Positions 8,480 through 51,792 of a stretch of DNA of 64,000 bases are shown piece by piece. The position numbers and the translations under genes were made by a program. The notes under the pieces were generated by a model, which saw only the letters and a list, made by a program, of their open reading frames with translations, was not told the DNA's origin and did no database searches. The DNA lies in the NCBI GenBank assembly GCA_903891415.1, contig CAITEH010000052.1, forward strand, positions 3,727-67,726, given 5' to 3'. How positions within the stretch are numbered: position 1 is the stretch's first letter; every line of letters begins with the position of its first letter. This DNA is from Candidatus Firestoneibacteriota bacterium (GTDB lineage Bacteria; Oederibacteriota; D2-FULL-39-29).

Positions 8480-9649
8480 ATGGATATCAAGTCAAAACTG
8501 AATATGAACGTAATTAACGCCCCCATGTCGGGAATAAGAAAGATCTCGGATATGGTCATGCAGATGAAGGATGTTATCAGGATGGACCTGGGAGAACCTG
8601 ATTTTGATGTTCCTGAACACATTAAAGAAGCGGCTATTTATGCCATAAAAAGCGGTTTTTCCCATTACACTCCCGGTCCCGGAATTTTGGAACTTAGAAA
8701 GGCCGCGGCTTCCAGGTTTAAAAATGATAACGGCCTGGACTATGACCCGGAAACGGAGATCACGGTCACGCAGGGCGGTGTCGGCGCCATATATTCCGCG
8801 CTTCAGACCCTGGTCAATCCCGGGGATGAGGTGATCGTTTCTGACCCGGTTTGGCCTGTCTACCTCGGGATACTTGGAATTCTGGAAGCAAAGCCGGTAC
8901 TTGTCACGCTTAAAGAAAAAGACGGCTTTAATATGCTGCCGGAAGAAGTTAGCAGGAAGATCACCTCTAAAACCAAGTGCATTGTAATAAACAGCCCCAA
9001 CAATCCGACGGGCGGGGTTATGACCGAAGAGAATATAAAAGCCGTTGCAAAAATAGCCCGGGAAAAAGGAATATTTGTTCTTTCCGATGAGTCCTATGAA
9101 AAACTTATTCTCGGCGGAAGAAAACATCTCTCGATAGGGTCGCTTCCCGGCATGCGCGACCTGACGGTTACGCAGTTTACTCTTTCAAAAACCTACGCGA
9201 TGACAGGGTGGAGAATAGGTTTTGCGGTGGCGAACAAGGAGCTTTCCGCGGGTATAAGAAAGGTTTCGCTCTATACAATTACCCATGCAAACTCTGTCGC
9301 GCAAAAAGCGGCGGTCGCGGCGATAAACGGCCCGCAGGATTGTGTCGCAAAAATGGTACAGGCCTTTAAGGAGAGGTCCAAGATCCTTGTGGACGGTTTA
9401 AATGCCACCGGCAAGATCACGTGCATACAGCCGGAAGGGGCTTTTTATGCTTTTGCAAATATTTCCGGGCTGAAAATGAAGTCAGAAGAATTCGTGCTTA
9501 GAATGATAAAAGAGGCCGGGGTCTCGGCCGTAAATGGTTCTGCTTTTGGCGAAAGCGGAGAAGGTTTTGTCAGATTCTGTTTTGCTAACTCGCATGAAAA
9601 TATCCGGGAAGCGGTCAAGAGGATAAGCGCGTTTACCGCTAAACTCTGA
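8480..9649 (+). CDS. PLP-dependent class I/II aminotransferase
   Basis: GEPDF, NSPNNPTG, SDESY, SKTYAMTGWRIG, GAFY. Confidence 0.93.
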   Translation: MDIKSKLNMNVINAPMSGIRKISDMVMQMKDVIRMDLGEPDFDVPEHIKEAAIYAIKSGFSHYTPGPGILELRKAAASRFKNDNGLDYDPETEITVTQGGVGAIYSALQTLVNPGDEVIVSDPVWPVYLGILGILEAKPVLVTLKEKDGFNMLPEEVSRKITSKTKCIVINSPNNPTGGVMTEENIKAVAKIAREKGIFVLSDESYEKLILGGRKHLSIGSLPGMRDLTVTQFTLSKTYAMTGWRIGFAVANKELSAGIRKVSLYTITHANSVAQKAAVAAINGPQDCVAKMVQAFKERSKILVDGLNATGKITCIQPEGAFYAFANISGLKMKSEEFVLRMIKEAGVSAVNGSAFGESGEGFVRFCFANSHENIREAVKRISAFTAKL

Positions 9650-9697
9650 TCTTAAAATTTGCAGCATAGGCCCTGTTACAGGGCCTGGGGGGAATAT

Positions 9698-9877
9698 ATG
9701 GGCAATATAGGGTTACCTGAACTGGTAGTTATCCTGGTTCTCGCTCTCTTGATCTTCGGCGCCGGAAAACTTCCGGAGGTCGGAAGATCCCTGGGCAATT
9801 CTATCAAAGAATTTAAAAAAGCAATGAAGGATGACGCTCCGGATACCGGCAAAGCTTCAAAAAAAGCCAAGAAGTAA
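9698..9877 (+). CDS. tatA: Twin-arginine translocase TatA/TatE
   Basis: [32 protein letters not shown] 9698 after GGGGGAA. Confidence 0.93.
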
Positions 9878-9891
9878 GTGAAAGTGTGGAA

Positions 9892-10009
9892 GGTGCCGGG
9901 AGAGGATAAGTAAGGGCTTTTCCTAATACCTATCACCCCGAACCCAGAACCTGCGCTTTAATAGGTATAACCATGAACCATTCATGCTTCAGGTTCATGG
10001 CCCTGCACC
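9892..10009 (+). ncRNA. Candidate structured leader RNA (four-way junction)
   Basis: Manually paired P1 9892-9900/10001-10009, P2 9903-9924, P3 9926-9968, P4 9971-10000. No match to a riboswitch class I recognise. Confidence 0.35.
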
Positions 10010-10035
10010 CGGAAACGCGTGGTGCGGGGTTTTTT
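10001..10035 (+). terminator. Intrinsic terminator immediately upstream of the kinase RBS
   Basis: CCCTGCACC / GGTGCGGGG stem with inner CG-GAAA-CG, then TTTTTT. AAGGAG follows at 10038. Confidence 0.7.
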
Positions 10036-10051
10036 ACAAGGAGAAGTGTTT

Positions 10052-11539
10052 ATGTCCAAACAAAAAGGTTATGTGGCTTTTGATCTCGGAGCTGAGAGCG
10101 GCCGCGGGATCTACGGGTACATAAAAAACGGGAAAATAAAACTCGAAGTCCTGCGCCGGTTCCTGAATGAACCGGTTGAGCTTAACGGCACGCTTTACTG
10201 GGATCTGCCTTTCTTTTTTAATGAGCTTAAAAAATCTATTATGCTCTGTGACCCGTCGCTCAAGAAAAAAATAAGCAGTATCGGGATAGATACCTGGGGC
10301 TGTGACTATGGCCTGCTTGATAAAAAAGGAAATCTTCTTTCTAATCCGGTACATTACCGGGATAACCGTACCAAGGGTATGATAGAAAAATTCATGAAAG
10401 CGGCCGGCCGGGAAAAGATCTACGGGATCACAGGCATTCAATATAATTTTTTCAATACCTCCGTGCAGCTTTTCGCGCAGCACCGGAAAGATCCGTCCAT
10501 ACTCAAGAGCGCGGCCACGCTGCTTCAGATGCCTGATCTTCTGGGTTACTTTTTTACGGGGAAAAAGGCCTCCGAACAGACCATTGTCAGCACTTCCCAG
10601 CTTTATGACCCCGGGAAAAAGGATTGGTCGCCGTATCTATTAAAGAAGGCCGGGGTACCTGCGAAAATAATGCTTAAACCCAAACCGGCGGGAACAACCC
10701 TCGGGCCGGTCAAGAAAGATATACTGGAGGAAATGGGGGCTGCGAAGATCAAGGTTGTCAGTGTGGGCGGCCATGATACGGCAAGCGCCGTGGCGGCAAC
10801 ACCGGCAAAAAGGGGTACCAACTGGGCCTATTTAAGTTCCGGTACCTGGTCGCTTATCGGTATAGAGACCGAAAAGCCGGTCATAAATGAAACCACGCTT
10901 GCTAATAACTTTACGAACGAAGCCGGAGTTTACAACACCAACAGGCTTATTAAGAATGTCATGGGGCTCTGGCTGATACAACGCTGCAGAAAAAAATGGA
11001 TGGATGACGACCGTAAGGAACTAGCCTACCCGGTCCTGGTGAAAGAAGCAGAAAAAGCAAAAGGCTTCAGGGCTTTCGTAGACCCCAATGACCAGAGTTT
11101 CTATTCTACTCCCGATATGCCCGGGGCAATTAACGCTTTTCTTAAAAAGACCGGGCAAAAACCGCTGAAAACGCGCGGAGAGATCATCAGATGCATCATG
11201 GAAAGCCTGGCTTTTGAATACAGGGCCAGTATAGAGGTGCTGGGAAAACTAAAAGGCAATAAAATAGAAGTATTGCATATACTTGGCGGAGGATCGCAGA
11301 ACGGCCCTCTTTGCCGGTATACTGCCGATGCCTGCGGAATAAAGGTGATCGCGGGTCCGGTTGAAGCCACGGCTCTGGGCAACATTGTGGTCCAGGCAAT
11401 AGTTTCAAGAGAGCTAAAGGACCTGGAACATGCCAGGGCGCTTATTAAGAACTCTTTCCCGCTCAAAGTCTATCAACCCGCGAATAACTCCGGATGGGAT
11501 GAGAACTATTCAAAATTTCTTGGTTTGAAAAAGGTATAG
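10052..11539 (+). CDS. rhaB: Rhamnulokinase/fuculokinase family (FGGY) sugar kinase
   Basis: FDLGAESGR, IDTWGCDY, HYRD.RT, GHDTASAV, LSSGTWSL, FTNE.G, GGGSQN, GPVEATA.GN. ATG 10052 after AAGGAG. Substrate uncertain. Confidence 0.85.
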   Translation: MSKQKGYVAFDLGAESGRGIYGYIKNGKIKLEVLRRFLNEPVELNGTLYWDLPFFFNELKKSIMLCDPSLKKKISSIGIDTWGCDYGLLDKKGNLLSNPVHYRDNRTKGMIEKFMKAAGREKIYGITGIQYNFFNTSVQLFAQHRKDPSILKSAATLLQMPDLLGYFFTGKKASEQTIVSTSQLYDPGKKDWSPYLLKKAGVPAKIMLKPKPAGTTLGPVKKDILEEMGAAKIKVVSVGGHDTASAVAATPAKRGTNWAYLSSGTWSLIGIETEKPVINETTLANNFTNEAGVYNTNRLIKNVMGLWLIQRCRKKWMDDDRKELAYPVLVKEAEKAKGFRAFVDPNDQSFYSTPDMPGAINAFLKKTGQKPLKTRGEIIRCIMESLAFEYRASIEVLGKLKGNKIEVLHILGGGSQNGPLCRYTADACGIKVIAGPVEATALGNIVVQAIVSRELKDLEHARALIKNSFPLKVYQPANNSGWDENYSKFLGLKKV

Positions 11540-13697: not shown

Positions 13698-14642
13698 ATG
13701 AAACCACAGAACTTTGAAGTTAAAAACGCGAAGATCAAGGCCGCTTTTCAGGAACTCAAACAGAAAGCGCCCGGTAGATTAAAAAAAAGGTTAAATCTTT
13801 CCTGGAGTAACTGGGGGTTTGGGCTTGAAGCTCTGGCTGCTTCGGCAAGAAGGCTCAGCAGGTATAGGGTGCCGTTCATTGAACTTCACGGGAACCATTA
13901 CGGGCCTGACCTTGGTTACAGACCGGCCGAGACCTTGAGGATCCTCAAGGATAATAATGTAAAGGTCGGAGGGATCTGCGGGATGTTTTCGGCTGATAAT
14001 GATCTCTCCAGCAACCGTCCCCTGCAGAGGCAGAATGCCCTTGACTATTTGAAAAGAGAGCTGGATTTTGCATATAAAGTCGAAGCTAAATATATACTTG
14101 TTGTACCGGGAGCGGTGGGAAGGCCGGTACCTTATGACAGCACTGAGTTTGACAGAAGCGTGGAAACCTTAAGGATGGTGGCCGGCCTTTTCCAGAAAAG
14201 CAAAATAAGGGCGGCAATAGAACCGATCCGCGCGGCGGAAGTTAGCTTCATACATACCATCGGGGAAGCAAAAAGATATATAGAAGCTGTTGACCATCCG
14301 GGGATCAGATTTATAAACGGGGATGTTTATCATATGCAGGTCGGGGAAGCTCATATAGGCGAAGCTCTTCTCGAAGCCGGAAAAATGCTGACCAACCTCC
14401 ACATGGCGGACAGTAACAGGTGCGCCCTCGGTGACGGAGCCCTCGATCTGGATACAATAATAATGGCACTTTATCTTATCGGTTTTAATAATGACAGCTG
14501 CTTTTTTACCCCGGAACCTTTGGGGCCCGGAGGCGATCCCTACCCCGCGATGAACGGCAAACCTGATCAGATAATATTGGATACGCTGGTCAAACAGACG
14601 GCGGAGTATTTCAGGGAACGGGAAACGGAATTACTAGGGTAA
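13698..14642 (+). CDS. Ketose 3-epimerase-like TIM barrel (D-psicose/D-tagatose 3-epimerase family)
   Basis: EPIRAAE, GDVYHM, HMADSNR and final EP match the family metal-binding motifs. Confidence 0.8.
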   Translation: MKPQNFEVKNAKIKAAFQELKQKAPGRLKKRLNLSWSNWGFGLEALAASARRLSRYRVPFIELHGNHYGPDLGYRPAETLRILKDNNVKVGGICGMFSADNDLSSNRPLQRQNALDYLKRELDFAYKVEAKYILVVPGAVGRPVPYDSTEFDRSVETLRMVAGLFQKSKIRAAIEPIRAAEVSFIHTIGEAKRYIEAVDHPGIRFINGDVYHMQVGEAHIGEALLEAGKMLTNLHMADSNRCALGDGALDLDTIIMALYLIGFNNDSCFFTPEPLGPGGDPYPAMNGKPDQIILDTLVKQTAEYFRERETELLG

Positions 14643-17315: not shown

Positions 17316-17693
17316 TTGGGGACGTGGCGAATAGCCGCTTTCGCCGTTGGCGGAGGAGGAAAGTCCGAACTCCAGAAGGCCGGGATGCCGCGTAACACGC
17401 GGTCGCTTGAAGTTAAAGCTTCAAGTGAAGGAAAGTGCCACAGAAAATATACAGCCCCGTACCACTCACTACGTTCGGGTACAGGGTGATGGTGAAAAGG
17501 TGGTGTAAGAGACCACCGGCTGCCGGGTAACCGGCAGCGCAGGGTAAACCCCATCCGGAGCAAGACCAAATAGGGGGAAGTCAATAAGGTGGTGCCGCCT
17601 GGTTCCCCGGGTAGGTCGCAAGAGGCGCATGGCAACATGCGTCCTTAGAGAAATGGCTATTAGAACAGAATTCGGCTTACGGCCCGGTCCCAA
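17316..17693 (+). ncRNA. rnpB: RNase P RNA (type A)
   Basis: GAGGAAAGTCC (17356-66), GGAAAGTGCCACAGAAA (17430-46), GAGCAAGACCAAATAG, ACAGAATTCGGCTTAC (17665-80). P1 formed by TTGGGGAC / GTCCCAA. Confidence 0.95.
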
Positions 17694-17700
17694 AAAAATA

Positions 17701-17741
17701 CGGACCTTCAGGGGGAAACCCCCGGAGGTCCGCATTTTTTT
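17701..17741 (+). terminator. Intrinsic terminator of rnpB
   Basis: CGGACCT..GGGGG AAA CCCCC..AGGTCCG followed by T7. Confidence 0.85.
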
Positions 17742-35850: not shown

Positions 35851-37098
35851 ATGGCTAAAAATGAGAACGAGAAAATAGTGGTCGGGCTGGATATCGGGAC
35901 GACCAAGATCTGCTGTGTGATCGGTGAAGTGAACGATTCCGGCGGGATCAACCTGATAGGTATAGGCAATTCGATATCGCGCGGGCTAAAAAAAGGTATC
36001 GTGGTCAATATCGAATCCACCGTGGGAGCCATAAAGAAAGCGGTTGAAGAGGCCTCGCGGATGGCAGGCGTTGAAGTGGGTTCCGTTTATGCCGGCATTG
36101 TAGGAAATCACGTCAAGGGTATTAATACCGAAGCAGTCGTGGCTATTGCCGGAAAGAATAAAGAAGTTACCAATGCCGATGTGGAAAGGGTCATAGAGGC
36201 GGTCAAGACCCAGTCGGTGCCGCCTGAAAGGGAGGTTATCCATATTATCCCGCAGGAGTTCATCCTGGACGATCAGGACGAGATAAGGGCTCCCATAGGA
36301 ATGTACGGCCAGCGCCTGCGCGCCAAAGTGCATGTAGTAACGGCATCGGTGGCAAGAACGCTGGATATTGTGAGGTCAATAGAAAAAGCCGGCTACTTCG
36401 TTGAAGATATAGTCTTGCAGCCGTATGCTTCGAGCGAAGCGGTACTAACTTTTGATGAGAAAGAGCTCGGGGTCTGCCTGGTGGATATCGGCGGGGGTAC
36501 TACCGATATTATTGTTTTTATTGACGGCGGGGTCAGGCATACTGCCGTGGTCGCGGTCGGAGGTATTCAGGTCACGAATGATATTGCCATCGGCCTCCGG
36601 GCGCCTATTGAAACGGCCGAAGATATCAAGAAAAACTACGGCAGCGCTTTTGCGGGCTCCGTAAGCGAGGTGGAAGAAGTAAGAGTAAAACTGATCGGCG
36701 ACAGGCCGGAGAGAGTTGTCCCTAAAAGAATAATTGCGGAAATAATCCAGCCGAGGATGGAGGAAATATTTGAAATAGTAAATCAGGAGCTTAAAATGTC
36801 CGGTAACGACGGAAAAATTGCCTCGGGAGTGGTCGTAACCGGCGGCGCGGCGCTGATACCCGGAATTGAAGAAGTAGTGGAGAAGGTCCTAAAAGTTCCG
36901 GTCAGGGTAGGGTATCCCCAGGGGATAAGCGGCCTGGTCGAGACCGCGAATTCACCTATGTACGCGACTGCGGTCGGCCTGGCGCTTTATGGCGCAAAAG
37001 CCAAAGCCAGCGGCAAGATTGGCGTAAGGGACCCGCGCCACGGAGGTCTGGAAAACATCTTTTCTAAAGTAAAAAAATGGTTCGGAGAGTTCTTTTAA
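35851..37098 (+). CDS. ftsA: Cell division protein FtsA
   Basis: GLDIGTTK, DIGGGTT, VTGG, C-terminal amphipathic VKKWFGEFF. Confidence 0.97.
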   Translation: MAKNENEKIVVGLDIGTTKICCVIGEVNDSGGINLIGIGNSISRGLKKGIVVNIESTVGAIKKAVEEASRMAGVEVGSVYAGIVGNHVKGINTEAVVAIAGKNKEVTNADVERVIEAVKTQSVPPEREVIHIIPQEFILDDQDEIRAPIGMYGQRLRAKVHVVTASVARTLDIVRSIEKAGYFVEDIVLQPYASSEAVLTFDEKELGVCLVDIGGGTTDIIVFIDGGVRHTAVVAVGGIQVTNDIAIGLRAPIETAEDIKKNYGSAFAGSVSEVEEVRVKLIGDRPERVVPKRIIAEIIQPRMEEIFEIVNQELKMSGNDGKIASGVVVTGGAALIPGIEEVVEKVLKVPVRVGYPQGISGLVETANSPMYATAVGLALYGAKAKASGKIGVRDPRHGGLENIFSKVKKWFGEFF

Positions 37099-37192
37099 AA
37101 ACTCAGCGGGGCGGAAAGCCCGGGAACAATTAAAAAAGCAATTATAATTATCAAAAAGTCCGTCACGGCGGACAAAAAACGGAGGAAGTAAA

Positions 37193-51707: not shown

Positions 51708-51792
51708 CCTTTGAATTCAAAAAATTGTCTTCAATATCAGTGGAATCTGATAGTTTTGTAATCAGTGGAATCGTTTTAGTAGGGGGGAACAA

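Follow-up and report, generated by a model that had tools for sequence, protein, structure and literature searches.

The spacer upstream of a sugar kinase operon in a Firestonebacteria genome is probably a mosaic of interspersed repeats

The window analysed here is a stretch of 64,000 nucleotides (nt), C52:3727-67726 in an assembly of 2.5 Mb that is 86.7% complete and whose closest named relative is a Candidatus Firestonebacteria metagenome-assembled genome. We refer to the window's own genome as G000 and to its contigs by C numbers; G001 to G007, G012 and the L numbers denote relatives or loci in relatives. The subject is a spacer of 175 bases between a tatA-like gene and an FGGY kinase gene. 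The tatA-like gene (9698-9877, on the + strand, as are the spacer features and the RNase P RNA gene described below) encodes 59 amino acids (Pfam TatA_B_E, E = 2.7e-21) and is preceded by an aminotransferase gene. The kinase gene (Pfam FGGY_N and FGGY_C) occupies 10038-11539 together with its Shine-Dalgarno sequence AAGGAG (10038-10043), and is the first of a run that continues with a class II aldolase gene (Pfam Aldolase_II) and a LarA-like gene (Pfam Lar_N). A first-pass annotation of this DNA had described the spacer as a four-way-junction RNA with a switchable terminator that gates the sugar operon. All of the elements it listed are present, with the correction that the kinase ATG lies at 10052 and not at 10053.

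The terminator stem consists of nine base pairs, one of them G-U, between CCCTGCACC (10001-10009) and GGTGCGGGG (10021-10029). A T6 tract (10030-10035) follows directly, then AC, then AAGGAG; the terminator therefore ends 2 nt before the Shine-Dalgarno sequence, as first annotated, and leaves no room for a promoter. This is the form of an intrinsic terminator, with a G+C-rich stem of 9-11 bp, a 6-nt loop and an adjoining T6, and RNAfold gives -20.4 kcal/mol for the terminator in isolation; a simple terminator scan had no entry for the 10001-10035 hairpin. Scanning the + strand from 9000 to 10052 yielded no sigma-70-like promoter. TATAAC at 9966-9971 was rejected as a kinase promoter, as it has no -35 partner when judged by eye, and readings of the flanking TCAGTGGAATC units as sigma-54, extracytoplasmic-function or Bacteroides-type promoters were rejected because their spacings, read from the sequence, are unsuitable.

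The alternative pairings that had suggested a switch are also present. GGTGCCGGG (9892-9900) is Watson-Crick complementary to the terminator 5' strand at eight of nine positions, and the chance of such a match within 123 nt of the same composition is 0.011-0.018. In a transcript cut at 10009, this helix (P1, 9892-9900 with 10001-10009) has pair probabilities of 0.74-0.77 and closes a predicted four-way junction with three contiguous hairpins (9903-9924, 9926-9968 and 9971-10000). The loop ACCCCGAACC (9935-9944) is in turn complementary to the terminator 3' strand GGTGCGGGGT at nine of ten positions. P1 and the terminator are mutually exclusive, as is required of a riboswitch or attenuator; in the full leader the terminator form is favoured, at -59.6 kcal/mol against -51.2 kcal/mol for the junction, a gap of 8.4 kcal/mol. 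The fold z-score of the entire leader is modest (-2.24). The structure is genuinely present and nominally non-random, and its non-randomness is due to the repeat origin of its parts.

We found that the spacer is probably a lineage-specific mosaic of two interspersed repeat families, one hairpin of which is terminator-like in combination with T6, and not a conserved sensor RNA. The second of its two modules, at 9969-10029, is one of 12 full copies, each of 62-66 nt, of a hairpin doublet identified in the genome by nhmmer; the covariance model R1 assigns it 77 bits (E = 1e-18). About eight single units occur in addition to the 12 doublets (BLAST, nhmmer and cmsearch), and a unit-level model recovers 25 units in 19 places genome-wide, all of them outside protein-coding genes and one inside rnpB. 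Unit A of the family is composed of CCATGAACC, a loop of 12-14 nt and GGTTCATGG, and unit B of CCCTGYACC, a loop and GGTRCRGGG. In reverse complement, B can be aligned with the whole length of A, so each doublet consists of a single 32-nt hairpin type present twice in inverted orientation. In the window, unit A (CCATGAACC, a 12-nt loop and GGTTCATGG; 9971-10000), a family member by nhmmer and cmsearch, is the third hairpin of the first-pass annotation, and the inverted unit B (10001-10029, CCCTGCACC to GGTGCGGGG) forms the terminator stem by alignment, covariance model and folds.

Pairing across 11 copies of the doublet reaches 96 and 90% in the two stems and 89% in a loop-loop helix, and a few changes are double-sided. 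At equilibrium, canonical copies form a single long, imperfect hairpin (-29.3 kcal/mol, z = -6.2); another canonical copy, in which both loops have changed together, likewise forms one long hairpin (-34.7 kcal/mol). The window copy has lost 3 nt from the B loop (GTGAATGGT to GTGGT) and forms two separate hairpins with a U tract behind them (-34.2 kcal/mol). That it does so, and that its second hairpin is terminator-shaped, follows from this deletion, from the fully paired G+C-rich B stem and from the adjoining T6, a tract that most members of the family do not have. The number of modules varies even within one element: at C5:113643-113817, four tandem A units with a period of 37 nt precede a single B.

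The first module (9892-9951) belongs to the YAGNACC family and is a cassette of inverted heptamer arrays. Its degenerate left arm (GGTGCCG GGAGAGG, 9892-9905), which contains the 5' strand of P1, aligns with the left arm GGTGCTGGG of a cassette on C83, and units of the GGTGCTGGG type are complementary to YAGNACC arrays. The core hairpin GGATAAGTAAGGGCTTTTCC (9903-9924), previously annotated as the first hairpin of the junction, was recovered by folding and is homologous to the C83 core GGAAAAAGTAAAGAGCTTTTCC. The right arm (TAATACC TATCACC CCGAACC CAGAACC, 9924-9951) is a YAGNACC-like array that lies inside the 9926-9968 hairpin and includes the loop ACCCCGAACC. Arrays of this kind with at least three units number 57 in the genome, compared with 4-8 in shuffles, and are frequently arranged as inverted pairs flanking a core. 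The first-pass annotation had offered a collapsed repeat cassette as an alternative to its regulatory reading, and given the heptamer cassette and the doublet copies across the genome, this alternative was the correct one. The genome's longest YAGNACC array, with 17 units, is found just upstream of the window start (C52:2919-3037).

The C83 element (13975-14190) is intergenic, lies between unrelated genes and has the modules in the order seen in the window leader: left arm, core hairpin, right arm, doublet and ribosome-binding site. Segmental duplication was rejected as the source of this similarity, as the flanking genes are unrelated. Given the shared order and the alignment of the left arms, the P1 5' strand GGTGCCGGG is a left-arm unit of the cassette. 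Right-arm units (CCCAGCACC) differ from the B stem CCCTGCACC by one base, and both of the complementarities that gave the appearance of a switch arise because left-arm units (GGTGCYGGG) complement these right-arm units. An equivalent complementarity between left arm and B stem can be read from the alignment of the C83 copy, which has no terminator to control because no T tract follows its B unit.

The kinase locus is retained in a relative of the same genus, in which the kinase is 83% identical and the order aminotransferase, tatA and kinase is kept. The tatA-kinase spacer of this relative is only 68 nt long and contains neither module and none of the hairpins; a run of TTTT stands where the window has T6. 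Homologous leaders upstream of kinase genes, which the first-pass annotation had proposed to collect, are thus absent at the syntenic locus. The R1 model has no match to L012 or L074, and near the more distant kinase homologues in relatives it yields a single weak match (L075, 18.6 bits, E = 0.005). Covariation in the doublet alignment is confined to the interior of the repeat units. The earlier statement that no riboswitch class is recognisable agrees with the Rfam search it had recommended: Rfam 15, with E up to 10 over 9000-11000, returned nothing in the leader. Over the whole window Rfam gave no family except RNase P, elsewhere in the window, and nothing credible was obtained for six other doublet copies. 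ARAGORN found no tRNA-like element in the window.

The doublet is dispersed both within and among genomes. The window copy is 93-97% identical over 37-41 nt to copies on C38, C83 and C26, and occurrence of the same sequence at unrelated loci is what the first-pass annotation had held would speak against its proposal. Of 41 genomes searched with the doublet covariance model, 17 have matches, counting the window's own. The same family has five other genomes, of which four reach 62-88 bits and G003 reaches 50 bits, and weaker matches extend across the order. The flanks of the copies in relatives are unrelated. In five cases both flanks of a copy in a relative map to adjacent genes of G000 whose spacer lacks the element; one such pair of empty and filled sites is formed by window positions ~36999-37175, where two conserved genes have no doublet between them, and G005:C211, where a doublet follows directly on the upstream stop codon. 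The exact A unit was found on 35 metagenome contigs; viral contigs gave no match, and a phage origin of the family was rejected on this ground. The genes downstream of the other copies are unrelated, with products that resemble Ldh_2, ThuA and URO-D proteins, the ammonium transporter Amt, a TIM-barrel isomerase and IlvC; these labels come from reading the translations, as the Pfam scan covered the window genes. Because the parts of the leader are interspersed repeats, the spacer is not conserved and the genes downstream of the copies are unrelated, the proposal of a ligand- or protein-controlled attenuator representing a new riboswitch class is left unsupported.

Under the mosaic interpretation, module 1 is the heptamer cassette, closed by the 9926-9968 hairpin, and module 2 a REPIN-like doublet whose second hairpin, with T6, would act as a strong intrinsic terminator ending the aminotransferase-tatA transcript. 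The sugar operon would then be transcribed by leak-through of this terminator, and a transiently formed junction may help the leak-through. Relative to the genome without the repeats, their insertion most likely lowered or insulated expression of the operon. In all, one copy of the family appears, from its sequence, to have become a terminator between unrelated genes.

Several points weigh against this interpretation. Termination at the hairpin and T6, with leak-through transcription of the kinase operon, is inferred from the sequence. The chance of the eight-of-nine pairing is only 1-2%, and the junction, a predicted nascent fold, may enter into real competition with the terminator. No mobilising enzyme was found: among 19 Y1_Tnp loci in six genomes with incomplete assemblies, none has an R1 match at E < 0.1 within 1.5 kb. 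Furthermore, eight of the 12 doublets share one orientation and a position 12-34 nt ahead of a start codon, an arrangement more ordered than expected of purely selfish DNA. A passive or exapted effect on read-through could also operate, because the terminator leaves no space for a promoter and faces competition from an upstream strand.

Such an effect is made explicit if the repeats were exapted as an attenuator, with 9892-9900 capturing the terminator 5' strand co-transcriptionally and closing the junction, so that a ligand or protein, by stabilising or dissolving the junction, controls read-through into the sugar operon. Formally, the leader has the architecture of a terminator/antiterminator pair, the P1 helix forms with a probability of about 0.75 in the transcript cut at 10009, its match has a P of ~0.01-0.02, and there is neither promoter room at the terminator nor a sigma-70-like promoter upstream in the region scanned. 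Nevertheless, we regard this explanation as unlikely: each arm of the junction copies a genome-wide repeat, the same complementarity of left arm and B stem exists in the C83 copy, the terminator form is the more stable by 8.4 kcal/mol, no Rfam class matches, and homologous leaders are missing at the same-genus syntenic locus, with only the weak L075 match elsewhere.

The hairpin units also occur in and beside genes for structural RNAs. The RNase P RNA gene is at 17319-17695 in the window (Rfam RF00010, 281.6 bits), with a canonical terminator 3' of it at ~17700-17741, and its helix P12 (17455-17486) is a related 32-nt hairpin unit and full family member, CCCCGTACC-ACTCACTACGTTC-GGGTACAGGG, scoring 28 bits with the unit hidden Markov model and 34.8 bits with R1. 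P12 carries the unit in G001, G005 and G007 as well; in G002 it has a longer insert with a B-type unit, and in G003, G004 (of the same genus as G002 and G005), G006 and G012 it is short or different and lacks the unit. On sequence comparison, the P12 unit appears to be a polymorphic insertion within the gene of a ribozyme. Four of the 19 unit sites are within 80 nt of one of the 29 tRNA or tmRNA genes, and two of them start at the encoded CCA. Units abutting tmRNA or tRNA 3' ends are found in G000 at C4:19774-19805, C6:27730-27838, C50:14150-14212 and C85:71640-71682, and also in L033 and L036; the encoded CCA supplies the first three bases of CCATGAACC in tmRNA, in tRNA-Gln and in two tRNAs from relatives.

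These positions raise the question of whether the 32-nt unit or the doublet is an RNA element under host selection that mRNA leaders have in common with RNase P RNA and with the trailers of tRNA and tmRNA; for instance, it might serve in processing, in stabilising 5' or 3' ends or in binding a factor. In the leader studied here, it would signal processing or termination between tatA and the kinase gene. The placement of the doublets is in keeping with this, as the eight sense-oriented copies end 12-34 nt 5' of a start codon and another three, in the opposite orientation, start 9-15 nt past a stop codon or tRNA (the twelfth is the cluster containing four tandem A units). On C38 the copy is located in a divergent spacer, 3' of a TTGAAA-17-TATAAT match identified by eye, and would therefore be in a 5' untranslated region. 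Overlap with the encoded CCA of tmRNA and tRNAs, identity with P12 in several genera and high sequence conservation across genera point the same way. Against this, presence and absence vary at syntenic sites and, in the P12 of rnpB, within one genus; the C5 locus shows tandem amplification; the downstream genes are unrelated; the P12 loop of G001 mismatches G001's own doublet loops; and no candidate binding protein was identified, CsrA being absent. On balance such a family-wide signal is improbable. The mismatch of the G001 loops was also the reason for rejecting a kissing interaction in trans between the P12 loop of RNase P RNA and the doublet loops.

It is similarly doubtful that both ideas hold together, such that the 32-nt unit is a host RNA module rather than selfish DNA, recognised by a common factor as a signal for processing or termination, and competition between the cassette arm and the B hairpin gives condition-dependent read-through into the sugar operon. 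That the hairpins and complementarities are fortuitous in a G+C-rich spacer would suit the leader's z-score of only -2.24, yet chance can be dismissed almost entirely, being refuted already by the repeat-family matches (R1 E = 1e-18 for 9969-10029, doublet fold z = -5.3, and P ~0.01-0.02 for the P1 match).

If the spacer is a repeat mosaic, the doublet family can be compared with known repeats. A REPIN is a doublet of REP sequences that forms a hairpin and is mobilised by a RAYT transposase, and the cognate RAYT defines the class (Bertels & Rainey, PMC3116915, PMC3337134). Like REP, BIME and REPIN elements, the doublet family consists of short imperfect palindromes that are multi-copy and almost all extragenic; as in REPINs, the two inverted units fold as one long hairpin in canonical copies, which the window copy no longer does. 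The family also shares with REP and REPIN elements its non-orthologous sites, vertical persistence across related genera and occasional tandem amplification, and with REP elements the capacity to become a terminator-like hairpin behind genes. It differs in having about 12 doublets and eight singles per genome rather than hundreds, and units of 32 nt with a loop of 12-14 nt. Unlike the situation for REPINs, none of the 19 Y1 genes is near a member, and G003 has five R1 matches (both strands counted) and no Y1_Tnp match. A RAYT link was accordingly rejected for the available assemblies, and since no Y1 gene is linked to the family, its resemblance to the RAYT-REPIN class is limited to form and dispersal. 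G000 does contain three Y1-transposase genes of the RAYT/IS200-like type (C46:856-1188, C75:11491-11817 and C50:2497-2784), each with inverted palindromes of its own on either side (GAGGGACAGCCACC; AGGGACAGCGACC; GTCAGACAGGAATGTCTGAC), which are distinct from the hairpin-doublet family.

The pneumococcal BOX element is a modular boxA-boxB(n)-boxC repeat, and the Correia elements of Neisseria are intergenic repeats. The doublet family resembles both in being modular with a variable module count (four A and one B on C5), in its position in leaders near start codons, in forming stable RNA hairpins and in that it may alter the expression of neighbouring genes. It differs from them, as compared by general description, in its phylum and in having no visible terminal inverted repeats or target-site duplication; a relationship in sequence would not be expected. 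The leader itself resembles riboswitch and attenuator leaders, such as those with four-way-junction aptamers, in that a 5' strand pairs with the terminator 5' strand and closes a multi-helix junction, and in that the terminator abuts the ribosome-binding site; it is unlike them in that it is not conserved with its operon, has no Rfam match and is built from arms that are all copies of dispersed repeats. For the unit in P12 there is a parallel in cyanobacteria, where STRR repeats reportedly lengthen P12 of RNase P RNA. Both cases involve a genome-wide short repeat carried in a dispensable peripheral helix of rnpB, with the difference that here it is a single hairpin unit rather than tandem heptamers, and the phylum is another. 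STRR repeats inside cyanobacterial RNase P RNA genes are the subject, by its title, of Vioque 1997 (ref. 108 in PMC2858038).

These results remove a false riboswitch candidate and show that, where a genome abounds in short repeats that complement one another, a mosaic of them can pass for a junction aptamer equipped with a terminator/antiterminator pair. They also document a REPIN-like hairpin family without a linked RAYT in an uncultured Firestonebacteria lineage; judged by titles and the openings of abstracts, none of the listed papers that mention Firestonebacteria concerns its repeats. Comparison with the insertion-free relative would offer a natural test of the effect of repeat insertion on operon coupling.

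Further small repeats were observed around these families. A twin-unit leader, AATCAGTGGAATCC-nAAAGnTTTGy-AATCAGTGGAATCG-yTyT..AAGGAGG..ATG, is found sense-oriented immediately 5' of the Shine-Dalgarno sequence of many genes, at window positions 51737-51773 and at least 20 other sites in G000 (for example C73:18270-18295, C40:4908-4933 and C55:27466-27491), and many of its copies carry the hairpin doublet as an insertion precisely between the twin units. Long arrays of twin-leader units are present at C51:4470-4704, C4:13402-13652 and C5:113484-113613. Binding of a CsrA-type protein to the twin-unit leaders, which contain GGA, was considered and rejected, as the assembly has no CsrA gene. In the leaders at L095, L107, L101 and G000 C26:4740-4810, the TCAGTG^GAATC unit is itself split by an insert of ~32 nt (TCCACCTTYGGTGAGATCTCGC..GGCGGA), a pattern that suggests nested insertion of another small element. 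Finally, the gap between the aminotransferase and tatA genes contains a perfect small palindrome, AGGCCCTG-TTA-CAGGGCCT (9669-9687), which has the GGCCCTG core of the doublet A/B junction and may be a remnant.

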